Shown: positions 27,394-62,209, counted from the first letter of the stretch. The stretch is 64,000 nt of DNA from Alphaproteobacteria bacterium (GCA_021774445.1 JAJFJA010000056.1:18347-82346); one strand, 5' to 3'. Notes: a model not told the origin generated them from the letters alone. A program made the numbers and translations.

Positions 27394-28233
27394 TTGGGCG
27401 GCACCATGGTGGCCATGCAGGAGCAGTTAGAGGCTCGGACCGACGCGGGAAGCGGGCCTCTAGTGGTCGATGTGAGAGACCTCTCGCTCACATTCAAGAC
27501 GTCGGATGGGCCGGTATACGCGTTGTCGCATGTCGATCTGCAGATCGCGGAGGGCGATTTCGTTTCCTTTATCGGGCCGTCGGGCTGTGGCAAGACGACC
27601 ATGCTGCGGGTAATCGCCGACCTGGAGCGGCCCACGGACGGGCAGATCACGGTCAATGGCGTCTCGGCGGAAGAGGCCCGCCTAAACCGAAGCTATGGTT
27701 ATGTTTTTCAGGCAGCGGCGCTGTACCCGTGGCGCAATATTCTGCGCAACGTGACCTTGCCGCTGGAGATCATGGGCGTCCCGGCGGCGGAGCGGCGAGA
27801 TCGAGCGCGGCGTTATCTCGAACTCGTGAACCTCGCCGGATTCGAGAAAAAATTCCCGTGGCAGCTTTCCGGCGGCATGCAGCAACGGGCGTCGATCGCC
27901 CGAGCCTTATGCTTCGATCCCGCATTGCTGCTGATGGATGAGCCTTTTGGGGCGTTGGATGAGATCGTGCGCGACCATCTCAACGAGCAATTGCTGCAGT
28001 TGTGGGAGAAGACCGGCAAGACGGTTGTTTTCGTGACCCATTCGATCCCGGAGGCGGTCTTCCTGTCGTCCAAGATCGTCGTCATGTCGCCGCGGCCGGG
28101 GCGGGTAATCGACGTCATTCACAATGATCTGCCGCGGCAGCGTACCCTGGATATTCGGGAATCGCCGGCGTTCTTGTCGGTGGCGCATCGGGTGCGGCAG
28201 GGGCTGCGAGCCGGGCATAGCTATGACGACTGA
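27394..28233 (+). CDS. ABC transporter ATP-binding protein (NitT/TauT nitrate/sulfonate/taurine-type family)
   Basis: Walker A GPSGCGKTT, signature LSGGMQQRASIA, Walker B LLMDEPFGALD. 279 aa with no extra C-terminal domain. Confidence 0.85.
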   Translation: MGGTMVAMQEQLEARTDAGSGPLVVDVRDLSLTFKTSDGPVYALSHVDLQIAEGDFVSFIGPSGCGKTTMLRVIADLERPTDGQITVNGVSAEEARLNRSYGYVFQAAALYPWRNILRNVTLPLEIMGVPAAERRDRARRYLELVNLAGFEKKFPWQLSGGMQQRASIARALCFDPALLLMDEPFGALDEIVRDHLNEQLLQLWEKTGKTVVFVTHSIPEAVFLSSKIVVMSPRPGRVIDVIHNDLPRQRTLDIRESPAFLSVAHRVRQGLRAGHSYDD

Positions 28234-29155
28234 CGCTATCGGCGGGGACGAGCGGTTTGCGGCGGGCAGCGCCCGGGTCGGCAGGGTAATCGGCCAGCGT
28301 GCGGCGCCGATCGCGGTCGTCGTGCTGGTGGTTCTCGTGGCGTGGTATGTCGGCGCCGTGGCGATGAATGCCCGGCTTCAGATCGATGCCTTCGAACGCC
28401 AAGAGGTGGCTTGGGACCGCGGCGACTTGGTGCGCGCGACGTTGTCTCAGGAGCGGCCGCTGTTACCGGCGCCGCATCAAATCCTGGTGGAGATGAAGAA
28501 GACCATCATCGATCAGAAAATCACCTCCAAGCGAAGCTTGGTCTTTCATTCCTGGGTGACGTTGTCGTCAACCCTGCTGGGCTTCGCCATCGGCACGGCG
28601 CTTGGCGTGGTGCTGGCCATTGGCATCGTGCATGTGACGACCCTGGAAAAGAGCTTGATGCCCTGGGTAATCTCCTCGCAGACGATCCCGATCCTGGCGA
28701 TCGCCCCCATGGTGGTCGTGGTGTTGGGGGCCATCGGCCTGAAAGGGTTGCTGCCGAAGGCGATCATATCGACTTATCTGTGCTTCTTCCCGGTCACGAT
28801 CGGGATGGTGAAAGGGCTGCGGGCGGCGGATTCGCTGCAATTGGACCTGATGCAGACCTATAGCGCGAGCCGATGGCAGACGTTGTGGATGTTGCGCTGG
28901 CCGGCGGCGTTGCCGTTCCTGTTCACGAGCCTGAAGGTTGCCATCGCGATTGCCCTGGTCGGGGCGATTGTCGGCGAACTTCCGACCGGTGCCCAGGCCG
29001 GCCTGGGGGCACGGCTGCTCGCCGGTTCGTACTACGGTCAGACGATCCAGATCTGGTCCGCCTTGCTGACCGCGGCGGCCTTGGCTTCGCTGCTCGTCAC
29101 AGCGGTGGGAGTGATCGAGCGGTTGACCTTGTCGCGCATGGGAGGCCGGCCGTGA
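28223..29155 (+). CDS. ABC transporter permease (NitT/TauT family)
   Basis: Start chosen at MTTDAIGG, overlapping the upstream stop (ATGACGACTGA). Polytopic protein. Confidence 0.8.
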   Translation: MTTDAIGGDERFAAGSARVGRVIGQRAAPIAVVVLVVLVAWYVGAVAMNARLQIDAFERQEVAWDRGDLVRATLSQERPLLPAPHQILVEMKKTIIDQKITSKRSLVFHSWVTLSSTLLGFAIGTALGVVLAIGIVHVTTLEKSLMPWVISSQTIPILAIAPMVVVVLGAIGLKGLLPKAIISTYLCFFPVTIGMVKGLRAADSLQLDLMQTYSASRWQTLWMLRWPAALPFLFTSLKVAIAIALVGAIVGELPTGAQAGLGARLLAGSYYGQTIQIWSALLTAAALASLLVTAVGVIERLTLSRMGGRP

Positions 29156-30294
29156 GCGCGGACGCGCGCGGCGACCGATGGTGCCGGGTCGCGCTGCTGC
29201 TCATGGCGCCGGCGCTGGTGCTGCCGCTGGGTGGCGGTGAAGCGATCTCTCGGTGGTCCGATGCGGCCGGCGCGCTGCCCTTTTTGCTGCCGCTGGCGGG
29301 TGTTTGCGCCTGGTTTAGCTGGCGCGGGATGGCGATAGCACGCCAAGGGGCGGTGTTGGTGCTGGCGGTCGCTCTGGGCGCCTGGGGTGCGGTGGATTTG
29401 CTGCATGAACACGGCATTGCGGGTCGCGCGGCGAGCGGCTTCTGGCTTTATGTGCTGGCACTGTGGGTGGCGGCTTGGCGGGGGATCGATGGCTTGGCGC
29501 GGTTCCGCAGCCTTGATGGACGGGCGCAACGGGCGGTGAACCTGTTGGTGCCGGCGGCTTTCGGGCTGTGGTTGATCTTTCTGTGGGAGATGGTAACGGT
29601 TGGTTTCGGGGTGCCGCAGGTGTTGCTCCCGGCGCCCAGCATGGTGGCCGAACGGTTCGCCGGATCGCTAAACCTGCTGTGGGCCGATTTCCGCCAAACC
29701 TTCCTCAAGGCGGTGATCTCGGGTTATGTGCTCGGCTGTGGCAGCGGTTTCATCGTCGCGGTGCTGGTGGACCGGGTGCCGTTCCTGCAACGCGGCTTGC
29801 TGCCTTTGGGCAATCTGGTGAGTGCGCTGCCGATCGTCGGCGTGGCGCCGATCATGGTCATGTGGTTCGGTTTCGACTGGCAATCGAAGGCCGCCGTCGT
29901 GGTGATTATGACGTTTTTTCCGATGCTGGTGAACACGGTCACGGGACTGGCGGCCGCCGGTGCTTTGGAACGGGATCTGATGCGGTCCTATGGGGCGGGC
30001 TATTGGCCGACCCTGGCGAAGCTGCGGCTGCCCGCGGCGATGCCGTTCATCTTTAATGCGCTGAAGATCAATTCGACGCTGGCCCTGATCGGTGCCATCG
30101 TCGCCGAGTTCTTCGGCACGCCGATTGTGGGTATGGGCTTCCGCATTTCCACGGAGGTGGGCCGCATGAATGTCGATATGGTCTGGGCGGAAATCGCGCT
30201 GGCGGCGTTAGCCGGGTCGGCGTTTTACGGGCTCGTGGCTCTTAGCGAGCGCGCGACAACGTTCTGGCATCCTTCGTTTCGGGCAGAGCGCTAG
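29152..30294 (+). CDS. ABC transporter permease (NitT/TauT family, N-terminally extended)
   Basis: GTG start overlapping the upstream TGA. Core motif FNALKINSTLALIGAIVAEF is paralogous to the upstream permease, and there are extra N-terminal TM segments. Confidence 0.75.
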   Translation: MSADARGDRWCRVALLLMAPALVLPLGGGEAISRWSDAAGALPFLLPLAGVCAWFSWRGMAIARQGAVLVLAVALGAWGAVDLLHEHGIAGRAASGFWLYVLALWVAAWRGIDGLARFRSLDGRAQRAVNLLVPAAFGLWLIFLWEMVTVGFGVPQVLLPAPSMVAERFAGSLNLLWADFRQTFLKAVISGYVLGCGSGFIVAVLVDRVPFLQRGLLPLGNLVSALPIVGVAPIMVMWFGFDWQSKAAVVVIMTFFPMLVNTVTGLAAAGALERDLMRSYGAGYWPTLAKLRLPAAMPFIFNALKINSTLALIGAIVAEFFGTPIVGMGFRISTEVGRMNVDMVWAEIALAALAGSAFYGLVALSERATTFWHPSFRAER

Positions 30295-30336
30295 GTTCAA
30301 TTGAAAACAAACATTGCCATCAACAGGAGGAAAATC

Positions 30337-31329
30337 ATGCACAAACTGTCTTTATCACTGGCGGCCGCAGCCCTGGGCTTGTCCGCGGCCTCGGCCCAGG
30401 CGGCGGAGGAAGTTACGCTGCAGCTCAAATGGGTGACGCAAGCGCAGTTCGCCGGTTATTACGTCGCTAAGGACAAGGGCTTTTATGACGAGGTTGATCT
30501 TGACGTTACGATCAATCCGGGCGGGCCGGATATCGCCCCGCCACAGGTGATTGCCGGCGGCGGCGCTGATGTGATTATCGACTGGATGCCGGCGGCGTTG
30601 GCCTCGCGTGAGAAGGGCGTGGCCTTGGTAAATATTGCGCAGCCGTTCAAACGGTCCGGGATGATGCTGACCTGCCGGGCCGAGACGGGCATTACCGGTC
30701 CGGACAGCTTCCGCGGCAAAACCCTGGGCGTGTGGTTCTTCGGCAACGAGTATCCGTTCCTGAGCTGGATGTCGCAGCTGGGCATTCCAACCGCCGGCGA
30801 GGGCGATGGGGTAACCGTGCTGAAGCAGGGTTTCAACGTGGACCCGTTGCTGCAGAAACAAGCCGATTGCATCTCCACCATGACCTACAACGAATACTGG
30901 CAGGTCATCGATGCCGGGTTGGCAGCCGATGACCTGGTGGTCTTCAAATATGAAGACGAGGGCGTGGCGACACTCGAGGACGGCCTGTATGTGCTGGAAG
31001 ACCGGCTGTCGGATCCGGCCTTCGTCGAGCGCATGGCACGTTTCGTAAAAGCCAGCATGAAGGGCTGGGACTGGGCACGGGAAAACCCGCAGGAAGCCGC
31101 CGAGATCGTGTTGGAGAACGATACGACCGGCGCCCAGACCGAGAAGCATCAGGTTCGTATGATGGGCGAAATCAACAAACTGACCGAGGGCTCGGACGGG
31201 ACCCTGGATCCGGCCGATTACGACCGGACGGTGAACACGCTGCTCTCGGGCGGGTCGGATCCGGTCATCACGGCCGCGCCGGAAGGGGCTTGGACCCACG
31301 CCGTTGTGGAGAAGATGAAAGCGCTGTAG
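30337..31329 (+). CDS. ABC transporter substrate-binding protein (NMT1/THI5-like, NitT/TauT family)
   Basis: AGGAGG ribosome-binding site precedes the start codon (30337). Signal peptide MHKLSLSLAAAALGLSAASAQA. Confidence 0.75.
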   Translation: MHKLSLSLAAAALGLSAASAQAAEEVTLQLKWVTQAQFAGYYVAKDKGFYDEVDLDVTINPGGPDIAPPQVIAGGGADVIIDWMPAALASREKGVALVNIAQPFKRSGMMLTCRAETGITGPDSFRGKTLGVWFFGNEYPFLSWMSQLGIPTAGEGDGVTVLKQGFNVDPLLQKQADCISTMTYNEYWQVIDAGLAADDLVVFKYEDEGVATLEDGLYVLEDRLSDPAFVERMARFVKASMKGWDWARENPQEAAEIVLENDTTGAQTEKHQVRMMGEINKLTEGSDGTLDPADYDRTVNTLLSGGSDPVITAAPEGAWTHAVVEKMKAL

Positions 31330-31410
31330 CAAGAGTTGGCCTCACGCTCGGCGAGCGTGGGGCCCTTCTTTGGCCATAGAGATCGGCGTCAAATCGTTGT
31401 TGGGAGGTGA

Positions 31411-32856
<1,446 letters not shown>

Positions 32857-38411: not shown

Positions 38412-38972
38412 ATGGCCGAAAACGACGAAGCTGCCGAAGAGGCGGACAACGAAGAAGACGGCGAAGGCGAAGGCCTTGAAGGCGGTTCTCGCAAGAGCAA
38501 GAAACGCCTGCTGCTGCTTATTGTGGTGCCGGTGATATTGCTGCTCGGGGCTGTCGGCGCGGCGATCATGACCGGGCTTGCCGACCCATTGCTGGGTGGC
38601 GGGGACGCCGAAAATAGTGAATTGGCGGAAGAAGATCTCGCGGAGGAAGAAGAGGTCGCGCACGGCCCGCCGGTCTATTTCGACCTGCCGCAGATGCTGG
38701 TTAATCTCAATAGCACCGGGCGAAAATCCAACTTCTTGAAAATCGTCGTGTCCCTAGAGGTGCCCAGCGAGGAGGATATCTACACGCTGGAGCAAGTATT
38801 GCCGCGGATTATCGACAATTTTCAGGTCTATCTGCGGGAGCTGAGAGTCGAGGACCTGCGGGGATCCGCCGGCCTCTACCGCCTGCGTGAAGAACTTCTG
38901 CTACGCGTCAACAAAGCGGTCCAACCAGCGCACATCAATGACGTGCTGTTCAAAGAAATGCTCATTCAGTGA
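38412..38972 (+). CDS. fliL: Flagellar basal body-associated protein FliL
   Basis: 186 aa with an acidic N-terminus and a TM segment (LLLIVVPVILLLGAVGAAI). FDLPQMLVNLNSTGRKSNFLKIVVSLEV matches the FliL core. Confidence 0.85.
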   Translation: MAENDEAAEEADNEEDGEGEGLEGGSRKSKKRLLLLIVVPVILLLGAVGAAIMTGLADPLLGGGDAENSELAEEDLAEEEEVAHGPPVYFDLPQMLVNLNSTGRKSNFLKIVVSLEVPSEEDIYTLEQVLPRIIDNFQVYLRELRVEDLRGSAGLYRLREELLLRVNKAVQPAHINDVLFKEMLIQ

Positions 38973-40117
38973 CTGACACCACCGAGGAAACAGCGGAAGC
39001 GCCCGATGACGACGCGGTGGCTGCCGAGTGGGAAGCCATGGCCGGAGACGATGGCGACGGCGACGGCGGAGGTGACGGCGGAGGTGACGGCGACGATCTC
39101 GCTGCCGATTGGGACGCCATGGCGGATGGCGATGACGAGGAAGAAGGCAATACCGGCCGGGTCCTGGATCAGGACGAAATCGACAGTCTACTCGGCTTTG
39201 ATGGAGATGGTGATGCCGGGGAGACCCATGGCGTCGCCGCGATCATCAACAGCGCGCTCGTCAACTATGAGCGTCTGCCGATGCTGGAGGTCGTGTTCGA
39301 CCGGCTGGTTCGGATGATGACGACCTCGTTGCGTAATTTCACGTCCGACAATGTCGAGGTCAGTATCGACAGCGTGCAGTCGATCCGTTTCGGCGATTAC
39401 CTCAATTCGATCCCACTGCCGGCCATGTTGACTGTGTTCAATGCCGAGGAATGGGACAACTATGCCCTGCTCACGGTCGATAGCTCGCTGATCTACTCGA
39501 TCGTCGATGTGCTGCTGGGCGGTCGCCGCGGCACTGCCGCGATGCGCATCGAAGGCCGGCCGTATACGACTATTGAGCGTAATCTGGTTGAGCGGATGGT
39601 CAATGTGGTGCTGGCTGACCTGTCGGCGGCGTTCGATCCCCTCAGTCCGGTGAACTTCCGCTTCGAACGGCTGGAGACCAATCCGCGGTTCGCGACCATC
39701 GCCCGGCCGGCGAACGCCGGTATCGTCACGCGCATGCGGATCGATATGGAGGATCGTGGCGGGCGTCTCGAGTTAATGCTGCCTTATGCGACCCTCGAAC
39801 CGGTACGCGAGCTGTTGTTGCAGATGTTCATGGGTGAAAAGTTCGGACGGGACTCGATTTGGGAAACCCATCTGGCTAACGAGCTGTGGATGACGGATGT
39901 GAATATCCGGGCGGTGCTCGACGAGCAGACCATGATGCTCGCCGATGTGCTGGCGCTTACGGTCGGGTCACAGTTGTCGCTGAACAGCCAACCGAACACG
40001 GATGTGCAGCTGTATTGCGGCGATGTGCCGATGTTCTCCGGCAAGCTGGGCCGCAAGGGCGGCAACATAGCGGTGCGGCTGGACAATCGGTTGATTGGCG
40101 AACGAGGGACCGACTGA
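38969..40117 (+). CDS. fliM: Flagellar motor switch protein FliM (with an unusual acidic N-terminal extension)
   Basis: The CheY-P-binding-like LDQDEIDSLLGF segment sits at residue ~70 rather than at the extreme N-terminus. The FliM core is RLPMLEVVFDRLVRMMTTSLRNFTSDNVEVSIDSVQSIRFGDYL. ATGA overlap with fliL. Confidence 0.9.
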   Translation: MTDTTEETAEAPDDDAVAAEWEAMAGDDGDGDGGGDGGGDGDDLAADWDAMADGDDEEEGNTGRVLDQDEIDSLLGFDGDGDAGETHGVAAIINSALVNYERLPMLEVVFDRLVRMMTTSLRNFTSDNVEVSIDSVQSIRFGDYLNSIPLPAMLTVFNAEEWDNYALLTVDSSLIYSIVDVLLGGRRGTAAMRIEGRPYTTIERNLVERMVNVVLADLSAAFDPLSPVNFRFERLETNPRFATIARPANAGIVTRMRIDMEDRGGRLELMLPYATLEPVRELLLQMFMGEKFGRDSIWETHLANELWMTDVNIRAVLDEQTMMLADVLALTVGSQLSLNSQPNTDVQLYCGDVPMFSGKLGRKGGNIAVRLDNRLIGERGTD

Positions 40118-40590
40118 TGACAATGGGCTTGGGGCTCGATGTCCTGGTCTCCGTGCTGTTGGTCGTGATGATCGGTTTCTCGGCATTACTAAGTCGGCGA
40201 CTGAGTAATCTCCGCGATGGCCGCGGGGAGCTTGATGGCGCCATTGCCGCCTTTGCCGCGGCCAGCGAGTCGGCCGAGGCGAGCGTGCAAAAACTCAAAC
40301 GGCATGCGGAAAGCCGCAATAGCGATCTGCAGGAGAGCATCGATTCGGGGCGCGCATTGCGCGACGAGTTGGCCTTTCTGCTGGATCGAGCGGAAGACCA
40401 GTCGAAACGGCTGGATACTCTGATTCGATCAGGGCGGGACAAGGCGGGGTCGTCGTTGGCAGAGAGCGATGCCGGCGCGGCGATTGGAGCGGTCGTGGCG
40501 GCATCGGGCTCAGAACCGGCCGCCGAGCCGGTCGGTCAACGCTCGGAAGCGGAGACTGCGTTATTGAAAACGTTGGCGGGACTGCGCTGA
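40117..40590 (+). CDS. Hypothetical membrane-anchored coiled-coil protein (flagellar operon member)
   Basis: 157 aa. The start codon overlaps the fliM stop (TGATGACAATG). One N-terminal TM segment is followed by a coiled coil. Confidence 0.5.
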   Translation: MTMGLGLDVLVSVLLVVMIGFSALLSRRLSNLRDGRGELDGAIAAFAAASESAEASVQKLKRHAESRNSDLQESIDSGRALRDELAFLLDRAEDQSKRLDTLIRSGRDKAGSSLAESDAGAAIGAVVAASGSEPAAEPVGQRSEAETALLKTLAGLR

Positions 40591-40630: not shown

Positions 40631-41254
40631 ATGTTATCCGTTCGTCTCTTGCATGTGACGATCGTCGCTGCCGCGCTGCTGTTGGTGGTGCGGCTGGGCG
40701 ATGTCTGGGTCGGTCTGCAGGTCAATGGTGTGGCGCTGGCAGCCCCGTCGGAGACCGACGCGGAGGCGGCGGAGGCCGATAACGAGGAGGCCGACGAGGA
40801 TATTGCGGCCGAAGATAGCGAGTCGATACCAGATGAGTTTACCTTCGAAGAGCTTCAGGTACTGCAGGACCTAGCGAACCGCCGCGAGGCCTTGGAGGAA
40901 CGCGAACGCGAGCTCAACCTGCGTGAGGGCCTGCTGAATGTGGCCGAGCAAAGGATCGAGACAAAGATCGCGAACATGGAAGATTTGCGGAGCGAGATCC
41001 AAGGGTTGCTGCGCGACTACGACGAACAGGAACAGGCGGAACTCAGGAGCGTGGTCAAAATCTATGAGACGATGAAGCCAAAGGATGCGGCTCGTATCTT
41101 GGAGGCGCTGGAAATCACCGTGCTGCTGCCGATTATGGAGCTGATGAAAGAACGATCCAGTGCTTCGGTTCTGGCTGCCATGGATGCCGTCACCGCGCGT
41201 ACAATCACCACCGAACTCGCGCGGCGGAAAGAGATCGATCCGCCGAACGGCTGA
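40631..41254 (+). CDS. MotE-like flagellar motility protein (MgtE_N-like C-terminal domain)
   Basis: 207 aa with an N-terminal TM/signal, an acidic linker, a coiled coil and a C-terminal VVKIYETMKPKDAARILEAL...MELMKERSSASVLAAMDAVTARTI motif, typical of the alphaproteobacterial MotE/FlbB family as I recall it. Confidence 0.5.
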   Translation: MLSVRLLHVTIVAAALLLVVRLGDVWVGLQVNGVALAAPSETDAEAAEADNEEADEDIAAEDSESIPDEFTFEELQVLQDLANRREALEERERELNLREGLLNVAEQRIETKIANMEDLRSEIQGLLRDYDEQEQAELRSVVKIYETMKPKDAARILEALEITVLLPIMELMKERSSASVLAAMDAVTARTITTELARRKEIDPPNG

Positions 41255-41426: not shown

Positions 41427-41813
41427 ATGGCCGTCGATCTCAACATGCCCGTTCTCATAGTCGATGACTATAAGACGATGCTAAGAATTATCCGCAACCT
41501 TCTCAAACAGCTCGGCTTCAACAATGTGGACGAAGCCATGGATGGTGGAGGTGCGCTGGCAAAGCTCCGGCAGAAGGAGTTTGGTCTGGTTATCTCCGAT
41601 TGGAACATGGTGCCGATGACAGGCATCCAGCTCCTCAAGGAGGTACGGGCCGACGAGAAGCTCAAGGCTATGCCCTTCATCATGGTAACGGCCGAGAGCA
41701 AGACCGAGAATGTGGTCGCCGCCAAGGAAGCCGGCGTGTCCAACTATATTGTCAAGCCGTTCAACGCAGCGACGCTGAAGACCAAACTGACCGCAGTAAT
41801 CGGCAACTTCTGA
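41427..41813 (+). CDS. cheY: Chemotaxis response regulator CheY
   Basis: 128-aa single receiver domain with DD (VLIVDDY), the phospho-acceptor D in VISDWNMVPMTG, and a conserved T and K (IMVTAES...KPF). Confidence 0.85.
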   Translation: MAVDLNMPVLIVDDYKTMLRIIRNLLKQLGFNNVDEAMDGGGALAKLRQKEFGLVISDWNMVPMTGIQLLKEVRADEKLKAMPFIMVTAESKTENVVAAKEAGVSNYIVKPFNAATLKTKLTAVIGNF

Positions 41814-41842: not shown

Positions 41843-42496
41843 ATGGCACAAGATGCAGGCTTAGGTAAGACCGCAGACGGTGGAGAGCTAGTTTTATCAG
41901 ATCATGACGGACTATCTGTTGAAGCAGTGACATCCATCGTGAAAGAGGCACTGGGTACGATGGAAGGCGATATCAACGGACCTGACCTCAGGGTCCTACA
42001 GGAAATTCAGTCGATCTCCGACTATATTGCGAAGTCGAAGCGTGAAGTCGCGGCGATACGGCCGGACAAGATCAGCTCCGAGCACATCCCGGCGGCGACG
42101 GACGAACTCGACGCTATCGTTTTGGCGACCGAGAATGCGACCAATAGCATTATGGAAGCGGCCGAAGTGATCGAGAGCGTGGCCGAGAAATCGGATGCCG
42201 AGACCTCACAGGTCCTAGTCGACGCGGTTACGGCGATCTATGAAGCCTGTGGCTTCCAAGACATCACAGGTCAGCGGATCGGAAAAATCGTCGGCGTCAT
42301 GCAGAATATCGAAACCAAGATCACAGGCCTGGTCGAGGCGTTTTCCGATGAAATCGAGAAACTCAAGGCAGAGATGCCAGACGAGGAAGAGACACCAGAG
42401 GTGTTAGACGATTCCGATTTGCTCAACGGGCCGCAGCTCGAGAATGATGCCCAGTCTCAGGATGAGATTGACCAGCTGCTCGCCAGTTTCGACTGA
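41843..42496 (+). CDS. cheZ: Chemotaxis phosphatase CheZ
   Basis: 217 aa with the catalytic motif ACGFQDITGQRIGK (FQDLTGQ-type with the active Gln) and a C-terminal acidic CheY-binding-like peptide QDEIDQLLASFD. Confidence 0.7.
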   Translation: MAQDAGLGKTADGGELVLSDHDGLSVEAVTSIVKEALGTMEGDINGPDLRVLQEIQSISDYIAKSKREVAAIRPDKISSEHIPAATDELDAIVLATENATNSIMEAAEVIESVAEKSDAETSQVLVDAVTAIYEACGFQDITGQRIGKIVGVMQNIETKITGLVEAFSDEIEKLKAEMPDEEETPEVLDDSDLLNGPQLENDAQSQDEIDQLLASFD

Positions 42497-42507
42497 GTCA
42501 ACTCACC

Positions 42508-43203
42508 GTGGTCGCCCGTCATTCCGATGGGTCTGGAGGGCAAGCATCCAGCCGCCCGATCGACAGACGGTCTGGCCTGGTGGCGGTATTGTCCTTGTTT
42601 CTACTGTTGCTGGCGTTCTTCGTGCTGCTCAGTACGCTGTCGCGCTTTGAAGCCACACGCACCAAAGCCGTTCTGGGTAGTCTCGACGCGACTTTCCGGG
42701 CACCGGATCAAGTCGGCTTTGAGCGACGGTTGGAATCCTTGGTCGGCGTGCTGGTCGGCGCGGAACGACTGGAGAATGTCGTCACGGATATCCTGCGCAC
42801 CGCCATCGCCCTCGACACCCACGAATTCCTGCGCGTCGGCGCCGAGTTGACCGCGACGCTGCGCGTATCGGATTTCTTTGAGGCGTCACGAGCGACGGCA
42901 CGCCCTGGCATTATGGAATTGGCAGAGTTGCTGGCGGATGCCGTTGCGGCGCCGCCTGCCGGTCTGCGTTATGAGGTTGACATCCTACTGCATCCGGTCG
43001 TCGACGAGGTCGACCTCGCGGTTCAACGGGCGGATATGTTGGCGAAAATCTTCTCCGATGGCGGCACGCCGGATGACGGCCTCGCGGTTGGGTTGACCAG
43101 CGGTGACACGCGAAACATTCGGTTGGTGTTTCGGGTCCTGCCCTCGGAGTTCGGTGACGGCGTCAGTTTCGGCGCCGATGGCCGCCGGCGAGTCATAAGA
43201 TGA
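42508..43203 (+). CDS. MotB-plug-like membrane protein, paralog A (degenerate)
   Basis: N-terminal TM plus plug segment LVAVLSLFLLLLAFFVLLSTLS, paralogous to the next gene. No clear OmpA domain. Confidence 0.45.
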   Translation: MVARHSDGSGGQASSRPIDRRSGLVAVLSLFLLLLAFFVLLSTLSRFEATRTKAVLGSLDATFRAPDQVGFERRLESLVGVLVGAERLENVVTDILRTAIALDTHEFLRVGAELTATLRVSDFFEASRATARPGIMELAELLADAVAAPPAGLRYEVDILLHPVVDEVDLAVQRADMLAKIFSDGGTPDDGLAVGLTSGDTRNIRLVFRVLPSEFGDGVSFGADGRRRVIR

Positions 43204-43889
43204 TCGGCGCGTCGGCCAGGCGGCCCGCATCCTCAGACCGGCGCTGGCTGATAACGTTCGCCGATTTGTCGGCGGTCATGCTGGCCTTCTTCGTGCTGAT
43301 GTTCTCGATGTCGGAGGTGGACACCGAAAAATGGGACGGTGCGGTCGACGCCATCAATAGAAGTTTCGATCCGATCAGCGACGAGGAACCGGCAATCCGG
43401 CCGCAAGCGGAACGCAATCTCGAAACGGTTCCGACGGTGCCGGCAACGAACTTGGCCTACTTGGCCGGGCTGCTCGAGAGGCAGACCCGCGATAGACCTG
43501 ACCTCGACCGTGTGCGGATATCGTTGCTGGCGGGGCAGCTCGTCGTCTCTTTCCCCAAAGGCGCCCTGGTGGACGATGCGGATCAACTAACCGCTCAAGG
43601 CAGGTCGGCGCTGTTCGTTCTGAGCGGCTTTCTTGCCGGGATCGATAACGAAATCAATGTGATCGGACACGCCCTGCGGCGACCGGTGCGTGAAATATCG
43701 CCATGGGGCCAGGCGCTTCGGCGTGCGGTGCTGGTAAGCGGCGCGCTGGAGCAAGCCGGGTATCGGCGGCCGATAGAGGCATTGGGCTATGCCTTGGAAC
43801 GCAGAGATCCGGTGTTGCCGGCCCGCAGCAGAGTGGATATCGACGGGCGGATCGATATCGTGGTCATCGAAGATAGGCCGGTCCTATGA
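43200..43889 (+). CDS. MotB-like protein, paralog B (MotB N-terminal signature plus degenerate OmpA-like C-terminal domain)
   Basis: WLITFADLSAVMLAFFVLMFSMS matches the MotB TM/plug signature. The C-terminus has OmpA-like remnants (INVIGHA..., ALRRAVLVSGAL). ATGA overlap with paralog A. Confidence 0.55.
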   Translation: MIGASARRPASSDRRWLITFADLSAVMLAFFVLMFSMSEVDTEKWDGAVDAINRSFDPISDEEPAIRPQAERNLETVPTVPATNLAYLAGLLERQTRDRPDLDRVRISLLAGQLVVSFPKGALVDDADQLTAQGRSALFVLSGFLAGIDNEINVIGHALRRPVREISPWGQALRRAVLVSGALEQAGYRRPIEALGYALERRDPVLPARSRVDIDGRIDIVVIEDRPVL

Positions 43890-46800
43890 GCAGAGCCCGT
43901 TCCGGTTTGACCGCCGGTTTGGCGGCGATTTTCGTCCTTGGGGCCGTTTTGCCGGCGTTTGCCGCGGAACGGATTGCGCTGCGCGCCTGGCCGCACCCCG
44001 ATTTCGCGCGTCTCGTCTTCGATTGGAAGTCGCCTGTTTCCTACGAGGTGGGGATCGACGGTCGCGTGCTGTCGGTCGTATTCGATCGTGATCTCGAGAC
44101 AAGTTTTGCCGAGGTTCAGACAAATCTGGGGGATCAGATCAGCGAGGCCAGACTTGGCGACGATGGTCGGACGGTACGCTTTACCCTAAAGGCGGATTAT
44201 GAGTTGCGGCATTTCGTGGCCGACGGGTCGGTCGTGTTGGATCTGCTGCAAAGCGGCCCCGAGGCCAAGGCGGATGGTCGTGCCAGCGTGCCGGTCAGAA
44301 CCGGGCAACATGACAAGTTCAGCCGGGTCGTGTTCGATTGGCCGAGTGTCGTCGACTATCAGGTGGCGGAAACAGATGGCGCGGTAACCCTGCGCTTTTC
44401 GCGCCCGGCGACCATCGACCTGTCGGCGGTTACCAGGGATCCGCCGCGCGAGATCGCCAGCGCCGAACAAAGTGACGATAGCGATGCCACCACGGTGGTC
44501 CTAGGGATTACCGCCGGTAGTCGTATCAGGCATTTTCGGGACGGTTTCAAAATTGTCGTTGACGTGCAACGGACGACTGAGCCGGAAATTGAGGATACCA
44601 GCGCGGCGCGGACCGCTGAGCCCGCCGAAGCGGATGAGCAGCCGGCACCGGTTGAGACAGCGCAGACGCCCCCAGAGCCGCCGGTGCAGATTACCGAGGC
44701 GTTGGCGCAACGGCCGGCCGCGGTTCAGGACCGAGAGGTTACGGCGACGAGTGCGACGGCGCCGCCCACACCGCAGGGTACGGAACTTCATGTGGCCTCG
44801 GAGGAGCAAGGTAAGGCGACTGCCGCGCCTACCGCCCTGGTCCCGACGGGCCACGCCGCGGAAGGCGGTTCCGCGCCGGACAGTGTCGATGCCGGACATG
44901 GTGAGGATGAGCCTACCGAGGCTGCCGAGGGCGACGACGACAATGCGGCGCCGGAAGAGTTTGAGGTTACATTTACCCGCTCGGCGGATGGCGGCGTGCT
45001 CTCGTTCCCGTTTCACCGGCGAACGGGGGCGGCGGCGTTTCGGCGCAGCGGGCGGCTTTGGCTCGTCTTCGATACGCCGGCCGCCGTCGATCCGCGGGCG
45101 ATCTTGGATATAGCGCAGGATGTCGTCCTGGGCGTCGAAAAGGTGGTCGTGGACGGTGCCCTGGTGTTGCGGCTGGATACAATACCTGGGTTCAACCCAA
45201 CCCTCGAGACCGATGGCAATGAGTGGCTGGTGACTATTCGGCCGCAGACCCTGGACCCAGCGACGCGGCTGGACGTGACGGTATCCAGTGATGTCGCCGG
45301 GGGCGGCACTGTCGTGGTGCCGGTGGGGGCGGTCAGCAAAAAGGTGACGTTGTCCGACCCGGAAGTCGGCGATCGGATTTCAGTTGTCACGCTCAAAGCG
45401 CCGGGCGTTGGCGTCAGCACGGAAAGATCATTTGTCGGCTTCGCTTTGCTCGAGTCGGCGCAAGGCGTCGCGGTGGTTCCGGCGCGTGATGACATCGAGG
45501 TGCAGGCGAACAGGAAAGGCGTGGTAATTGGCGCCGACGGCGGCCTGGCTATTACCACGGTGCGGGAGCGGTCGCAGATCAAACAGGCGGCCGGGGGTGC
45601 CAACGTGGTGCGGCGCTACTTCGACTTCGACGGCTGGCGCGGCGCCGATGGTCAGTATGAGGAGACCAAACAAGCGTTACAGTTGCACGTTGCCACCACG
45701 GGCGGCGACGACCGCGACGCGGCGCGGCTCGATCTTGCTCGGTTCTATTTCGCGCATGGTCAGTCGGAGCGTGTACTTGGCGTGTTGGCAGCCATAACGC
45801 GCGACGGTGGGACCGCCGGAAGGTCGCCGGAGTTCAAGGCGTTACGGGGTGCCGCCGCCTATTTGGCGAGGCGGTCCGACCTGGCGGCAACGGACCTGGC
45901 GGACCGGCGGCTCGACGATGAGCCGGAAATCGGCCTTTGGCGCGCCGCGTTGACGGCGGATCAAGGCGACTGGCCCGCCGCCGCGGCCGGGCTGCAAGAT
46001 AGCGAACTTTATGTGCAGCGTTATCCCGACGATTTGCGGGCGCAGTTCAGTTTGCTCGGCGCCGATGCGTCGTTGCGGGTTGACGATTCCATCGGGGCGA
46101 AGGCGTGGCTGGAGTCGCTGAGAGGCGTCTCGCTGAACGAGACCGATAACGGTCTTGCAAAGGTCTATCTGGGTATGGTGCTGGCCGACAATGGTCAATT
46201 CGAAGAGGCGATGGAGAAGTTCGATCAAGCCATCGCCGGTGACGACCGAAAAAGCCGCGCCTTGGCGATGTTCGAACGGGCTAATCTGCAGCTTGAGATC
46301 GGTGAGGCGGACGAACAAGAGGTGCTGGGCGACCTCGACCGGCTGCGTTACGCCTGGCGGGGCGACGATCTGGAATTCAGCGTCCTGCGCCGGCTGGGCC
46401 AACTACGGGTCGAGAGCGACGACTATCGCGACGGGCTCCAAATGATGAGACGGGCCGCGGCGAACTACCCGCAGCATCCGGAAGTCGAGGGGCTAACGGA
46501 GTTGATGCAAAAGACGTTCAGCGATCTGTATCTGCATGGTGGCGCCGACGTCATGCCGGCGGTGCGGGCGATCGCTATATTCAACGAGTTTCGCGAGTTG
46601 ACGCCGACCGGTAGCGAAGGCGATGAGATGATCCGGCGGTTGGCGGACCGATTGGTCTCAGTGGATTTGCTGGAGCAAGCGGCTGAGCTGCTAACTCATC
46701 AGATGGAGTTCCGCGTCGAAGGCGAGGAGAAGGCCGGTGTCGGTACCAGGCTCGCCATCTTGCACTTGATGGATCGGCGGCCGGAGGAGGCCTTGCAGGC

Positions 46801-47323
46801 GTTGCGGGACAGCGAAGTCCGCACGATGCCCGCCGCGTTGTTCGATGAGCGGGTGCTTTTGCAGGCGCGCAGCTACTCCGAAATGGGACAGATCGAGGAC
46901 GCCCTCAAGCGGATTGCGCAGGACGATCGTGTTGAAGCGGACCGCCTGCGGGCGGACATATTCATGCGCGTGCAAGACTATCCGCGGGCTGTGGAAGTAT
47001 TGACGCGGCTGGTGGGCGCGGCGCCGGCGGCAGGGCAAGTCCTGGCCGCGGAGCGCAGCGTGCGGGTGTTGAACCTGGCCGTGGCGCTCAATCTTGCCGG
47101 CGACCGCCGCGGCCTCGATACGTTGCGGGAGCGCTTCGGACCGGCGATGGAAACGACGGAATTCGCAAATGATTTTCGGGTGATCGCGTCGAAGGATACG
47201 AACTCTCGCGAGCTGCGAAACGCGTTGAGCCGGGTGGCGGCCGTGGACGACTTCAAAGCCTTCATCGAGGCTTATCGCGACCGGCTGGCACTTCCGGCCG
47301 ATGGTACGACGCTGGTAAATTAA
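43886..47323 (+). CDS. Large secreted protein with two N-terminal AMIN-like domains, a Pro/Ala/Glu-rich linker and a C-terminal TPR-rich region
   Basis: 1145 aa with a signal peptide (AAIFVLGAVLPAFAAE). Internal repeats RAWPHPDFARLVFDWKSPVSYEVGIDGRVLSVVFDRD and GQHDKFSRVVFDWPSVVDYQVAETDGAVTLRFSRP are AMIN-like. TPR-like helices are seen from about residue 640 onward. It overlaps paralog B by 4 nt. Confidence 0.6.
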   Translation: MSRARSGLTAGLAAIFVLGAVLPAFAAERIALRAWPHPDFARLVFDWKSPVSYEVGIDGRVLSVVFDRDLETSFAEVQTNLGDQISEARLGDDGRTVRFTLKADYELRHFVADGSVVLDLLQSGPEAKADGRASVPVRTGQHDKFSRVVFDWPSVVDYQVAETDGAVTLRFSRPATIDLSAVTRDPPREIASAEQSDDSDATTVVLGITAGSRIRHFRDGFKIVVDVQRTTEPEIEDTSAARTAEPAEADEQPAPVETAQTPPEPPVQITEALAQRPAAVQDREVTATSATAPPTPQGTELHVASEEQGKATAAPTALVPTGHAAEGGSAPDSVDAGHGEDEPTEAAEGDDDNAAPEEFEVTFTRSADGGVLSFPFHRRTGAAAFRRSGRLWLVFDTPAAVDPRAILDIAQDVVLGVEKVVVDGALVLRLDTIPGFNPTLETDGNEWLVTIRPQTLDPATRLDVTVSSDVAGGGTVVVPVGAVSKKVTLSDPEVGDRISVVTLKAPGVGVSTERSFVGFALLESAQGVAVVPARDDIEVQANRKGVVIGADGGLAITTVRERSQIKQAAGGANVVRRYFDFDGWRGADGQYEETKQALQLHVATTGGDDRDAARLDLARFYFAHGQSERVLGVLAAITRDGGTAGRSPEFKALRGAAAYLARRSDLAATDLADRRLDDEPEIGLWRAALTADQGDWPAAAAGLQDSELYVQRYPDDLRAQFSLLGADASLRVDDSIGAKAWLESLRGVSLNETDNGLAKVYLGMVLADNGQFEEAMEKFDQAIAGDDRKSRALAMFERANLQLEIGEADEQEVLGDLDRLRYAWRGDDLEFSVLRRLGQLRVESDDYRDGLQMMRRAAANYPQHPEVEGLTELMQKTFSDLYLHGGADVMPAVRAIAIFNEFRELTPTGSEGDEMIRRLADRLVSVDLLEQAAELLTHQMEFRVEGEEKAGVGTRLAILHLMDRRPEEALQALRDSEVRTMPAALFDERVLLQARSYSEMGQIEDALKRIAQDDRVEADRLRADIFMRVQDYPRAVEVLTRLVGAAPAAGQVLAAERSVRVLNLAVALNLAGDRRGLDTLRERFGPAMETTEFANDFRVIASKDTNSRELRNALSRVAAVDDFKAFIEAYRDRLALPADGTTLVN

Positions 47324-47330: not shown

Positions 47331-48065
47331 TTACCCGAAGCTCTGAACCAGGCTGCCCGCTATCAGGAACCAGCCGTCAATCAGCACAAAAAAGATCAGC
47401 TTGAACGGCAGAGAGATCATGATGGGCGGCAGCATCATCATGCCCATGGACATGAGGATGGACGCGACCACCATGTCGATGACGACGAACGGGATGAACA
47501 ACAAAAAACCAATCTCGAAGGCGCGTCTCAGCTCGGAAATCATGAAGGCGGGGACCAGGGCGCGCAATGGCGTGTCTTCGGGCGCCGCGACTTCTTCGAA
47601 TTCAGCCAGGTCCATGAAAAGACGCAGATCTTGGTCGCGCACATGCAACACCATAAAGGCGTGCAGCGGGGCGAGAGCCCTGTCGATGGCCTCTTCTTCG
47701 GTGATCTCCGCCGCCATCAGAGGGACGATGCCGTCGTTATAGGAGGCCTCTAGCGTGGGCGCCATGATGAACGCGGTGAGGAACAGTGCCAAGCTCACCA
47801 AAACAGTGTTCGGCGGTGTCTGCTGAGTCCCCATCGCGCTGCGTAGAAAAGACAGCACGACGATCACACGGGTGAAGCTGGTGGCCATGACGATTATCGA
47901 TGGCGCCAAGCTCAAGACCGTGAACAGCACGAAGAGCTGGACCACACGACCGGTCGTGGTGCCGGCACCGAAGTCCAGGTTCAGGCTCTGGGCGGTCGCT
48001 GGCGCGGCGAGTACGACCGCGATGAGCAAGCCCAGTGCAGCTTGGCGAACAACGGCGCGCATCAT
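47331..48065 (-). CDS. fliP: Flagellar biosynthesis protein FliP (export apparatus)
   Basis: 244 aa with a signal peptide, then VQLFVLFTVLSLAPSIIVMATSFTRVIVVLSFLRSA...GFLLFIPFVVIDMVVASILMSMGMMML. Confidence 0.9.
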   Translation of the reverse strand: MMRAVVRQAALGLLIAVVLAAPATAQSLNLDFGAGTTTGRVVQLFVLFTVLSLAPSIIVMATSFTRVIVVLSFLRSAMGTQQTPPNTVLVSLALFLTAFIMAPTLEASYNDGIVPLMAAEITEEEAIDRALAPLHAFMVLHVRDQDLRLFMDLAEFEEVAAPEDTPLRALVPAFMISELRRAFEIGFLLFIPFVVIDMVVASILMSMGMMMLPPIMISLPFKLIFFVLIDGWFLIAGSLVQSFG

Positions 48066-48362: not shown

Positions 48363-48647
48363 CTATTCGGCCGCTTCTTCCGGCACGATCGTGGCGTCTG
48401 CCGCCGCTTTGGTTTCTTCGAGGTCGTCCCTGGCCGCGTTCAGGCGGTCCAAGAGTGTGACGAGTTCGCGCTTGATTTCCTGAAGATCCGCTTCCGGCAG
48501 GGCTAATGCCGCCTTGCAGGCATGGTCGATGGTGCCGTTGAAATTTTGCAGATCCATCGGCTCGCCATTGGCGACCGAGGTATTGAATTCATCCACCAGG
48601 CGGTTGGCCTCGGCCAACATCCCTTTGGCCGTCTCAAGTGCGCTCAT
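48363..48647 (-). CDS. Hypothetical protein in the flhB-like/fliOP operon
   Basis: Start chosen at MSALETAKG (94 aa). A helical, acidic C-terminus. No recognised motif. Confidence 0.4.
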   Translation of the reverse strand: MSALETAKGMLAEANRLVDEFNTSVANGEPMDLQNFNGTIDHACKAALALPEADLQEIKRELVTLLDRLNAARDDLEETKAAADATIVPEEAAE

Positions 48648-48654
48648 TGGGCTC

Positions 48655-48993
48655 TCATTTTGTTTCCGTGTGGGCAGTCGTGTTGGGCGTCTGGTTCGCG
48701 GCATTGGCGCGGTAGATGTAGCTGAGTATTTCGGCCACGGTCGCCAAGGCCTCTAGAGGAACCTCGCTATCGATCTCGACAGCTTCGAGTATCTCGATCA
48801 GATCCGCGTCTTCGCGCACCTTGACGCCGGTCGCGAAGGCGAGCTGCAAGATCTGCTCCGCCACACCACCCTGGCCTTTGGCAACCAGGCGGGGCTGGCT
48901 GCTGCCGGTCGGGTCGTGTTTAACGGCCACCGCGGACGAACGGGGCTCGCGCCGCTTATGGCCGCCTTCGGCGGCAAGGGTCGATTCGGTCAA
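48655..48993 (-). CDS. Stand-alone FlhB C-terminal-domain-like protein (EscU/YscU/FlhB-type export switch paralog)
   Basis: VAKGQGGVAEQILQLAFATGVKVREDADLIEILEAVEIDSEVPLEALATVAEILSYIY matches the FlhB cytoplasmic C-domain pattern (KG.G..A..I...A...G.P..ED..LA..L......IP.EL...VAEIL). Confidence 0.6.
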   Translation of the reverse strand: MTESTLAAEGGHKRREPRSSAVAVKHDPTGSSQPRLVAKGQGGVAEQILQLAFATGVKVREDADLIEILEAVEIDSEVPLEALATVAEILSYIYRANAANQTPNTTAHTETK

Positions 48994-59930: not shown

Positions 59931-61030
59931 TGCCGGTCGACGAGCCGCCGGAAACCAAGCAGACGCTGCTAGAGGTCAACGGGTTGTCGAAATACTTCCC
60001 GATCAAGAAGGGCGTGCTGCGTAAGATATTGGGACAGGTGCGCGCCGTCGATGACGTCAGCTTCGCGATCTACGAGGGCGAAACGCTTGGTCTTGTGGGC
60101 GAGAGCGGCTGCGGCAAGACGACGACGGCGCGCTGCATCATGCGCGCCATGGACCCTACCGCCGGCGAGATAATGTTCCGCAAAGCCTCCGGCGACATGG
60201 TCGATATCGCGGCGCTGCCGGAGAGAGAGATGCGGCCGCTACGCCGAGAGATCCAAATGATCTTTCAAGATCCCTACGGCTCGCTCAATCCGCGGATGAA
60301 CATTCTCGATATTCTGGGTGAGTCGCTGCTGGTCATCGGCGGCATGACCGATCGCGAGGAGCGCAGCGAACGGGTGGCGGAGCTGTTGCGGCTGGTCGGT
60401 CTGCGTCCGGAATATATGCAACGGTTTCCGCACGCGTTTAGCGGCGGCCAGCGGCAACGCATCGTGATCGCGCGGGCGCTGGCACTCAACCCGCGGCTGG
60501 TGGTGGCGGACGAGCCGGTTTCGGCGTTGGATGTGTCGGTGCAGGCTCAGGTGCTGAACCTGATGTTGAAGCTGCAACAGGAACTCAATCTAACCTATCT
60601 GTTCGTCGCGCATGATCTCAGCGTCGTGAAGCATATCTGCGATCGCGTCGTGGTCATGTATGTCGGCAAGATCGTCGAGGTGGCGCCGACGCAGGCATTG
60701 TATGAAAAGCCGAAGCACCCCTATACAGCGGCCCTGATGTCAGCGGTACCGGTGGCGGATCCGCGGCAGCGGGCGGCCATGACGCCGTTGGAGGGGGATG
60801 TGCCAAGCCCGGCCAATCCGCCGTCAGGGTGCTATTTTCATCCCCGTTGCCCTTACGCAGTGGATATATGCTCGCAACAACAGCCGGCCTTGGAAGAAGG
60901 GGCCCCGGGCCACTTCGTCCGTTGCCATCGAGCGGCGGAATTGTCCTTGTCGGGCATTGGAGATCTGGACCGGCCGCAAACCGTCGCCAGTGCCAGCAGC
61001 AGCGACGCGGGCGTCGGACCGATAGGCTAG
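59930..61030 (+). CDS. ABC transporter ATP-binding protein (DppF/OppF-like)
   Basis: Start codon overlaps the upstream stop (TGATG). Walker [10 protein letters not shown], signature FSGGQRQRI, Walker [13 protein letters not shown]. Confidence 0.9.
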
Positions 61031-62109
61031 CGCCTTATCGGTCGGCAGTACTGATCTGCTGCGGCGAGAGCCCCACAGACGGATTTGGCAGAGGCCTCGC
61101 TGTCCAAGGAGCCGGCAAGGACACGAAAGAAGTGCCCCTTTTCCGGGATATCAATTTCCTCAACGGCAAGGGATAGGGCACCGAGGGCGCTCGGGTGGCG
61201 CTTTTGCAGGCGCTGCCATTCGTCCTCGACCAAACTGCCATCGCGTATTGAGACGAGATGGAGGCTCCAGGGTCCGTTGGCGGATGCCGAGCCGGTGTTG
61301 ACGGCGGCTAGGGGCTGCGGCTTGGCCGCAACCTCAACCGTCCCATCGTCTCCGGTCGATGGGGCATCGCCGGCTGGCGACCTGGCGATCTGCTGCACGG
61401 GCGGTTGGGTCGGGGCTGATCGTGCCGCCGCGACCGGAGTGGGCGTTGTTGCAACGGGTGTGGCGCTGACGGCCGGTGTGGCGGCCGCCGTGGCGGTCTT
61501 CGGCTCCGTCGGTGCGACCGCCGGCGGGGTCTTATCGAGATCGACGAGCGCTGCCGTAGCGGCCGTCTCGGTTGCTGGAGGCGTCGCTTCCGCGGTTACC
61601 GGCTGAGCCGCTACCGTTTTGTCCTCTATCGGTTGATCTTGGGCGGCCGGTTTGACCGCCACCTCAACACTGTTTCTGCGGGCCTGCACCAGCTGGGTCG
61701 GCGTCATCAGTTTTTCGATGTAACTCAGGCTGTTCTTGGCGTCTTCGTTGCCCCGAGTCGCGGAGAAGGTGAATAGCCTATGAGCCTCGACATAATCTTG
61801 CAGCACGCCGGTGCCGTTGCCGTACATGACGCCAAGATTGTATTGCGCGATCGCGTCGCCTTGCTCCGCCGCCAGGCGATACCAGCGGACCGCCTTGGTG
61901 TAGTCCTGGGGAACACCCAGACCCTTCTCATGCATGAAGCCCAGGCCGACTTGCGCCTTGATATCTCCTTGATCGGCCAAGGTTCGCCATTCATCGACGG
62001 CGACTTGGTAATCGCCCCGACTATAGGCCGCAAAACCGGCGGCAAAATCTGCATCGGCCTGGGTCACCATCGCGATGAGCGCGGCTATGACGATTACTGT
62101 CCGTTTCAT
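61027..62109 (-). CDS. Sel1-repeat protein with a Pro/Ala/Thr-rich linker and a C-terminal SPOR (septal peptidoglycan-binding) domain
   Basis: Signal peptide [20 protein letters not shown]. Sel1 repeats include [47 protein letters not shown]-terminal SPOR-like [10 protein letters not shown]...[11 protein letters not shown]...CGAL. Confidence 0.7.
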
Positions 62110-62209
62110 GCAGAGGAACATGCCCTGCCGCTGGTCGATGATCAAGGATGCAAGCACACCCGCCGTTGCTTTTCCGCGCAAGTGTAGCCGGTCGACAACG
62201 ACAGTCGCT

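Follow-up and report, generated by a model that had tools for sequence, protein, structure and literature searches.

Gene Organization of the Locus

The 64,000-nucleotide stretch of Alphaproteobacteria bacterium DNA analyzed here (GCA_021774445.1, JAJFJA010000056.1:18347-82346), referred to as the window, carries within its flagellar genes three open reading frames (ORFs), designated A, B and C, that encode two MotB-like membrane proteins and a large predicted periplasmic protein with AMIN-like and tetratricopeptide repeat (TPR) regions. Features are given with positions counted from the first nucleotide of the window:

42508-43203, positive strand: A, predicted MotB paralog without the Asp (Ser29), 231 aa, assigned from family profiles and an AlphaFold2 (AF2) model
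43200-43889, positive strand: B, short MotB-family subunit (WLITFAD, Asp22), 229 aa, assigned from Pfam MotB_plug (6.7e-15)
43886-47323, positive strand: C, predicted periplasmic AMIN-like/TPR protein, 1145 aa

The A/B and B/C junctions are both ATGA, a 4-nt overlap of stop and start codons, and the start codon of A is GTG, which matches the equivalent start of a homolog with 62-64% identity. The same-strand run located 5′ of A reads fliL-fliM-DUF6468-motE-cheY-cheZ, and fliP and fliO lie downstream of C on the negative strand in convergent orientation, with the stop side of fliP 7 nt 3′ of the C stop codon. The first-pass annotation, made from the sequence of the window, had described three coupled genes with 4-nt overlaps that follow cheY-cheZ and converge on fliP, and its coordinates proved exact.

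The MotB-like Proteins

By its sequence, B is a MotB-family stator subunit that retains the proton-carrying Asp and the plug; it was assigned to this family because of its invariant Asp and Trp, the plug, the OmpA domain of the family and the profile match to PomB/MotB. B scores 54.9 bits against Pfam MotB_plug, where the cutoff is 24, and its transmembrane and plug segments match solved MotB/PomB chains in the Protein Data Bank (PDB) at 1.5e-7. The Asp of the WxxTFxD motif and its Trp (Trp16) are each present in 35 of 35 B-family members, all of which match MotB_plug, and the B-family profile matches PomB/MotB chains over their full length at 8e-34 (approximately 1e-33). The first-pass annotation had called B a pseudo-MotB, a description that is contradicted by the invariant residues and the profile match. 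Pfam OmpA is matched by 24 of the 35 family members, including relatives with approximately 40% identity to B; the B protein of the window itself has no Pfam OmpA match, its motif reading GHAL / SPWGQALRRA / GRIDIV as opposed to the consensus GHTD / SNWELSLARA / RRVDIV. This decay of the OmpA-type motif is limited to the clade of the window (the window, L004 and, in part, L001 and L005), whereas most other B proteins retain GHTD...NWELSLARA...RRVDIV.

Sequence profiles and a structural model identify A as a MotB paralog of full length, in which the OmpA-like fold is kept and the ion-binding Asp is missing. A MotB transmembrane/plug signature had been noted in both small proteins by the first-pass annotation; it is strong in B but weak in A alone (MotB_plug 0.0029, below the cutoff), although 32 of 34 A-family members match this domain at E ≤ 0.01. 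Direct alignment of A and B is limited to 64 aa at the N-terminus (E 8e-5, with 34% identity); when the A-family and B-family profiles are compared with hhalign, 188 columns align, those of the C-terminal domain among them (98.7% probability, E 1.9e-16). The best PDB matches of the A profile are MotB chains (6ysf_A, 5.4e-12), among which Campylobacter jejuni MotB is aligned over nearly its full length. The AF2 model of A, built from an alignment that included B-family sequences, has a predicted local distance difference test (pLDDT) value of 81 and consists of a long transmembrane and plug helix followed by a beta-alpha OmpA-like domain. The best matches of this model in a Foldseek search are OmpA-like wall-binding domains, with Pseudomonas PA0833 ranked highest and, after it, periplasmic domains from Helicobacter pylori MotB, Salmonella MotB and Vibrio PomB, with TM(target) values of 0.5-0.69 for the MotB/PomB domains. 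The earlier statement that OmpA-like remnants occur only in B needs correction: A alone has no Pfam OmpA match, but by profile and fold comparison it retains the complete OmpA-like/MotB periplasmic fold.

The position of the ion-binding Asp is occupied in the A family by Ser in 23, Ala in seven and Gly in four of the 34 members, and no acidic residue (D/E) was found anywhere in the transmembrane segment of any of the 34. A also lacks the Trp that is invariant in B and the peptidoglycan-binding GHTD/NWELS motifs, and it evolves faster than B, with a mean column identity of 26% as compared with 41%. These properties, namely the missing Asp, Trp and peptidoglycan-binding motif together with the faster evolution, would be expected if A were a MotA-independent bitopic membrane adaptor resembling FliL or MotF, whose OmpA-like domain docks C or the periplasmic domain of B and holds the scaffold at the membrane. 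Such a role is nevertheless considered unlikely; the best-conserved part of A is its transmembrane and plug-like segment (LAFF invariant, S45), which corresponds to the part of MotB packed onto MotA and the second MotB, and a passive anchor would not require transmembrane conservation of this kind. 

A literature search found no description of a MotB paralog lacking the Asp, and a further one on motB in Rhodospirillum contributed nothing relevant. As far as these searches reached, the new element of the locus is an Asp-less MotB twin tightly paired with B. The suggestion of the first-pass annotation that the module is undescribed stands only for this Asp-less twin and falls for C, whose class was named and genetically tested between 2021 and 2024.

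The Probable Scaffold Protein C

From its gene position, and by analogy with the architecture described for MotK and FssB, C is probably a periplasmic stator scaffold of the MotK/FssB class. The following regions were delineated in the protein, all on the positive strand:

43886-43963, positive strand: residues 1-26, predicted Sec-type signal peptide (AFA/AE), read by eye from a basic N-terminus and a hydrophobic stretch; helix 3-25 in the model
43967-44575, positive strand: residues 28-230, two tandem AMIN-like beta domains, from repeats, profile and model
44585-44926, positive strand: residues 234-347, disordered Pro/Ala/Glu-rich linker, from pLDDT <50 and composition
44948-45550, positive strand: residues 355-555, two further beta-rich domains, with strands at 362-453 and 465-550 and pLDDT >90
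45560-47287, positive strand: residues 559-1134, TPR-type alpha-solenoid, from Pfam TPR_2 (5.4e-8), TPR_16 and TPR_19; helices uninterrupted in the model

Two N-terminal AMIN-like repeats and a TPR-rich C-terminal half had been recognized in the first-pass annotation, and both were recovered here. The two repeats are 28% identical to each other (E 8e-12) and form modelled beta domains at residues 31-122 and 133-228 with pLDDT >90, and the solenoid is also confidently modelled; the AF2 model as a whole, based on an alignment of 115 sequences, has a mean pLDDT of 86.5. Pfam scores for C are 0.0012 for AMIN-like and 0.026 for AMIN, both of which are sub-threshold, PF24837 is recorded on many C relatives, and the C-family profile reaches the N-terminal region of PilQ (4av2_A at 5.7e-4). 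A third AMIN-like repeat at residues 355-456 finds no support in the sequence, as this region has no significant sequence repeat with the AMIN-like domains.

When the C model was searched against 350,542 PDB chains with Foldseek, the top match was 9hmf_K of the C. jejuni motor scaffold (E 2.8e-10); 9hmf_L, an 820-aa 'TPR domain protein', also matches, and TPR proteins dominate the list. Template modeling (TM) scores between C and 9hmf are low (0.15-0.21) because the solenoid alone superposes, and searches of the PDB with phmmer and with the family profile detected no significant sequence similarity between C and the 9hmf chains (9hmf_L, E 1.4). The C family comprises alphaproteobacterial proteins of approximately 1000-1250 aa that are named only 'hypothetical' or 'TPR repeat protein', and a profile of distant C-like proteins matches 3117 representatives at E ≤ 1e-30.

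AmiC and PilQ are the best-known carriers of the AMIN domain, and C has weak NCBIfam matches to tol_pal_ybgF (0.032), PilW, GltE and PorW, as would be the case if the three genes encoded ordinary cell-envelope proteins (OmpA-like, Tol-Pal/YbgF-like or a cell-division TPR protein) that happen to lie beside flagellar genes. The first-pass annotation had named envelope or Tol-Pal proteins as the outcome that would count against its proposal, and the results went the other way. The tol_pal_ybgF match reaches 14.8 bits where the cutoff is 90.1, the PilW, GltE and PorW scores are likewise far below their cutoffs, and the flagellar operon context described below is found in 80 of 80 loci; a Tol-Pal or cell-division identity of C was rejected on these grounds. 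Since B also carries the MotB-specific plug and Asp, and the homologous class has a Mot- phenotype, this explanation of the triad is poorly supported and exceedingly improbable.

Conservation of the Module in Related Bacteria

To examine related loci, one genome per species was scanned with an alignment of eight C sequences, giving 209 matches from which 80 loci were kept, and the ORFs of these loci were searched with the window proteins and with family hidden Markov models. Most of the 80 loci bear the label Rhodospirillales or that of related spirilla, and a few metagenome-assembled genome records carry other or discordant labels; the genera represented are Rhodospirillum, Rhodospira, Roseospira, Caenispirillum, Novispirillum, Haematospirillum, Terasakiella, Insolitispirillum, Magnetovibrio, Magnetospirillum, Phaeospirillum and Telmatospirillum, among others. 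Almost throughout these loci, a gene order repeats in which flgF-G-A-H on the negative strand is followed by fliL, fliM, DUF6468, motE, optional cheY and cheZ, optional A and B, and then C. The presence of cheY-cheZ varies independently of A and B.

Pairing of the genes was counted in the 70 loci, duplicates excluded, in which C is accompanied by an upstream anchor gene. Both A and B are present in 47 of these, in every case in the order A, B, C on one strand, and an ATGA or GTGA overlap joins A and B in 29 of the 47, indicating that the arrangement does not arise by chance and answering the check for co-occurrence beside fliL-fliM and cheY-cheZ that the first-pass annotation had proposed. B occurs without A in two loci, in one of them as a fragment (L058, 9058-9495) and in the other with no room for A (L081, 8019-8951); A occurs without B in none of the 70. 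Neither gene is found in 21 loci, two of which are truncated and therefore uninformative. No other MotB-like ORF was found in the flanks of the related loci, and tblastn searches of A and B against plasmids returned no match.

The loss of the catalytic Asp and of the OmpA motif, together with the splitting of A in two loci, could indicate that A is merely a decaying motB duplicate with no function of its own. This is poorly supported and very improbable, as an intact A ORF is maintained in approximately 45 species-level genomes despite only 22-35% identity, the transmembrane segment is strongly conserved, and both the position of the gene and its coupling to B are kept, with A never present without B and B alone just twice. 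The split copies, in L046 (8377-9250) and L047 (8481-9249), each consist of two overlapping ORFs and may reflect a frameshift or a sequencing error.

The distribution of the genes also bears on the possibility that A and B are B-type subunits of a second, specialized stator, differing in ion, load range or regulation, that C recruits while a canonical MotAB is encoded elsewhere. Lineages with C only exist, which implies that MotB was ancestrally encoded elsewhere; B-family proteins are short (approximately 230-247 aa) and, down to the most distant members, confined to this context, the most distant relatives of both A and B found sharing the same gene context; and the canonical MotB beside MotA in Azospirillum scores just 58.7 bits on the B-family model. 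However, B has every hallmark of MotB and is closest to PomB/MotB chains, so that it may simply be the only MotB, and a second stator is accorded a low probability. 

More distant relatives of C were also identified. Two distant C-family members lie directly after DUF6468 and a MotE-like gene in FliX/DksA-type loci, without A or B, and thereby connect the proteins of Rhodospirillales with the Caulobacter-type arrangement. Plasmid flagellar clusters also contain weak relatives of the C solenoid. On the Azospirillum brasilense plasmid NZ_CP059453.1 (L086, 7951-12253), a 794-aa TPR protein is encoded directly ahead of motA-motB, in the order flgFGAH, TPR protein, motA, motB, with the TPR gene opposite flgF-flgH; the Erythrobacter plasmid cluster reads fliL, fliM, DUF6468 and onward. 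In four loci from marine Rhodospirillaceae/Magnetovibrio (L015, 13617-14051; L018, 13483-14031; L070, 2411-3121; L077, 2731-3198), an extra CheY-like receiver gene lies directly 3′ of C.

Neighboring Genes and Other Features of the Window

The genes that flank A, B and C were assigned as follows:

38412-38972, positive strand: fliL, Pfam FliL 8.1e-20; first gene of the same-strand run, its position kept in related loci
38969-40117, positive strand: fliM, Pfam FliM 4e-66 and FliMN_C 1.7e-17
40117-40590, positive strand: DUF6468 membrane/coiled-coil protein, pflI equivalent by position only, Pfam DUF6468 2.9e-16
40631-41254, positive strand: motE (COG3334/FlbB/FlgY class), NCBIfam collar_FlbB 2.6e-6 and Pfam MgtE_N 0.0039, both below cutoff
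41427-41813, positive strand: cheY, NCBIfam CheY 8.4e-48 and Pfam Response_reg 4.1e-28
41843-42496, positive strand: cheZ, Pfam CheZ 5.3e-15 (56.3 bits, cutoff 30.7)
47331-48065, negative strand: fliP, Pfam FliP 3.9e-79

The assignment of motE is supported, beside its sub-cutoff scores, by the presence of this gene at the same position in nearly all related loci. The gene lies upstream of cheY and went unmentioned in the first-pass annotation; MotE is a known partner of MotK-type proteins. The DUF6468 protein has one transmembrane segment and a coiled coil, and its gene is likewise kept between fliM and motE in nearly all related loci. A literature search found no mention of DUF6468 by name. 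In Paracoccaceae, the flagellar-placement gene pflI, which has been studied in Caulobacter, lies between fliL and motE (PMC10954123).

Domain scans of the large ORFs of the window identified flagellins, rod, ring and export genes, and several transporters. At 48363-48993 on the negative strand, a 112-aa protein corresponds to only the C-terminal part of FlhB (Bac_export_2 positions 258-335, 4e-13), and a 113-aa ORF without a family lies between it and fliO. Of the related loci that include fliO, most have the FlhB C-terminal gene next to it, and the 113-aa ORF was detected in only approximately ten. Four tandem flagellin genes, FlgL-like and FlgK genes and two glycosyltransferase genes occupy 2781-7177 and 16250-24659, the glycosyltransferases being of the Maf flagellin type (2781-5135) and of a TPR plus GT41 type (5198-7177); this gene content suggests a glycosylated filament built of multiple flagellins. 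An island at 27394-32856 encoding an ATP-binding cassette transporter, an NMT1-type binding protein and an amidohydrolase splits the flagellar region, with flgI (25455-26663) on one side and the flgH-flgF block on the other. A negative-strand gene at 61027-62325, unrelated to the flagellar ones, encodes a Sel1-repeat protein with a C-terminal SPOR (septal peptidoglycan-binding) domain.

Proposed Role in Stator Recruitment

Taken together, the locus is likely a Rhodospirillales-type version of the fliL-fliM-pflI-motE-...-motK/fssB operon, encoding parts for the placement and activation of stators in a polar motor. The first-pass proposal of a flagellar stator-associated module with a wall-anchored TPR scaffold agrees with the synteny, the protein architectures and the phenotype of the class. 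The gene identities, architectures, conservation and co-occurrence that underlie this assignment are those presented here, the requirement for rotation and the contacts among MotE, MotK and MotB are taken from the literature on homologous systems, and the pairing of A with B and the division of labor in wall anchoring are inferred steps.

In the proposed mechanism, MotE would form or join a ring around the membrane-supramembrane (MS) ring, the proposed E-ring. C would be exported by the Sec system and, judging from its sequence, its two AMIN-like domains may tie it to peptidoglycan, with the flexible Pro-rich linker and two beta domains joining this part to the TPR solenoid of approximately 575 aa. 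By analogy with PflA/PflB in Campylobacter, the solenoid would contact MotE and the periplasmic part of MotB, through which C would recruit or open stators. B would act as the ion-conducting subunit of the B type, within a pentamer of MotA whose gene lies at another place in the genome. An unlinked motA and motB would be normal for this class, as the Paracoccaceae operon contains motA with motB elsewhere and Caulobacter MotB is CCNA_01644. A would be a duplicated MotB that no longer carries protons and has probably lost peptidoglycan binding, made in step with B through translational coupling. 

How A acts is less certain. It is tentatively suggested that A is the partner of B, the two meeting either in a heterodimer within the MotA ring or by way of their OmpA-like domains; A would then be the half responsible for docking and regulation, coupling the stator to C. 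As the wall-binding motif of B has decayed in this lineage, wall anchoring may fall largely to the AMIN-like domains of C. In a stricter form, A and B would be an obligate asymmetric heterodimer inside the MotA pentamer, with one proton-carrying Asp per stator and the A half docking a MotK-like scaffold that takes over peptidoglycan anchoring; this form is doubtful.

Several points weigh against the interpretation of the locus as a MotK/FssB-type module in which A and B form a paired stator subunit. To our knowledge, an A-B heterodimer with a single Asp has no precedent among flagellar stators, and the OmpA-like fold modelled for A is not independent of the profile result. Approximately 19 informative loci, in Magnetospirillum, Phaeospirillum, Telmatospirillum, Magnetovibrio and others, have C without A or B; C therefore works without these genes at the locus, the MotB of such organisms must be encoded elsewhere, and B could be an extra rather than the sole stator subunit. 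Domain scans found no MotA domain in any large ORF of the 64-kb window, which extends the earlier observation that no motA is adjacent, however this absence says little, as the Paracoccaceae operon has motA with motB elsewhere. At 1145 aa, with two AMIN-like and two extra beta domains, C is much larger than MotK (652 aa), and its comparison with MotK and CC_2058 is one of gene position and architecture. The link between CC_2058 and MotK is itself a distant homology proposed on structural grounds, with no BLAST similarity (PMC10954123).

With these points considered, the assignment of C extends the MotK/FssB class to Rhodospirillales-type bacteria such as Rhodospirillum, Terasakiella and Caenispirillum, and to Magnetospirillum without A or B, and supports the view that stator scaffolds composed of an E-ring and TPR spokes occur widely among Alphaproteobacteria. 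Of greater interest is the conserved twin of MotB without the ion-binding Asp. If A shares the MotA ring with MotB, rotary models in which two Asp residues alternate would have to accommodate a stator with one, and if A lies outside the MotA ring, it would represent a new kind of stator-derived adaptor; in either case it offers a genetic handle on stator recruitment and activation in polar alphaproteobacterial motors and prompts one to ask if a scaffold can take over wall anchoring from MotB. Were the heterodimer reading true, A and B would be the first case in nature of a flagellar stator whose B-subunit is heteromeric, and a natural test of the need for both Asp residues in a 5:2 motor.

Comparison with Known Stator Systems

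The protein CC_2058/CCNA_02137 of Caulobacter crescentus, which has a secretion signal and a TPR region, was named FssB by Hershey, Fiebig and Crosson in 2021 (PMC7885107). Deletion of fssB leaves cells flagellated but paralyzed, like a motB mutant, and blocks the stator-dependent signaling pathway in which FssB acts (PMC7885107). Tables of Caulobacter genes list fliL as CC_2062, fliM as CC_2061, MotE as CCNA_02138 and flgF-flgH as CC_2063-2066, with MotB, CCNA_01644, elsewhere in the genome (PMC7885107). FssB (Q9A6M9) resembles C in its secretion signal and TPR region and in its location directly after motE, downstream of fliL-fliM and opposite flgF-flgH, and the distant C-family members in FliX-type loci occupy its exact gene position. 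The Caulobacter locus differs from the window in having neither A and B nor cheY-cheZ.

In the Fla2 system of Cereibacter (Rhodobacter) sphaeroides, Velez-Gonzalez et al. (2024) found MotK and MotE to be periplasmic and needed for rotation, but not for flagellar assembly (PMC10954123). Each binds the other as well as MotB2, and both are found at the flagellated pole, localization of MotK requiring MotA2/MotB2 (PMC10954123). MotK (RSWS8N_12065, Q3IY86) begins with an AMIN-like region, contains Pro-rich disordered segments and is otherwise TPR-like; it is encoded in a Paracoccaceae operon of fliL, pflI, motE, motA and motK, with motB elsewhere (PMC10954123). Like C, it is Sec-exported, combines AMIN-like, Pro-rich and TPR regions and comes from the gene that closes the fliL-pflI-motE operon. 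MotK has a single AMIN-like domain, whereas C has a much longer solenoid in addition to its extra domains, and the gene ahead of motK is motA rather than the A-B pair of MotB paralogs found ahead of C. 

A 2026 review groups MotE, FlbB and FlgY (COG3334) as the E-ring protein, with MotC, MotK, PflA and FlcB as TPR partners of the MotE group (PMC13023049). The Sinorhizobium meliloti protein MotC resembles C in being periplasmic and TPR-rich, in depending on MotE and in acting on MotB; it differs in having no AMIN domain (PMC13023049), and motE lies between flgI and flgH in that organism (PMC10954123). The same review describes CC_2058 as structurally similar to PflA and likens both MotK and CC_2058 to PflA (PMC13023049), a parallel that the first-pass annotation had also drawn for C and with which the top PDB fold match of C is in agreement. 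PflA/PflB of C. jejuni and H. pylori (PDB 9hmf) are, like C, TPR scaffolds, forming periplasmic spokes and a rim that link FlgY to the stator ring and MotB. Their likeness to C is a fold resemblance of the solenoid without detectable sequence similarity.

B shares with MotB/PomB the transmembrane segment with its invariant Asp and the plug, an OmpA-like domain is found in the B family, and A has the same layout and fold as MotB/PomB; in A, however, the Asp is replaced and the GHTD/NWELS motifs are lost. Both proteins are further set apart from MotB/PomB by their short length (approximately 230 aa) and their lack of linkage to motA, and the B protein of the window also by its decayed peptidoglycan-binding motif. 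Tandem TolR/ExbD/MotB-like paralogs are known from non-flagellar 5:2 motors, including AglQ/AglS of Myxococcus gliding and ExbD1/ExbD2 of Xanthomonas, and in these systems the two paralogs are thought to share one MotA/TolQ/ExbB-like partner.

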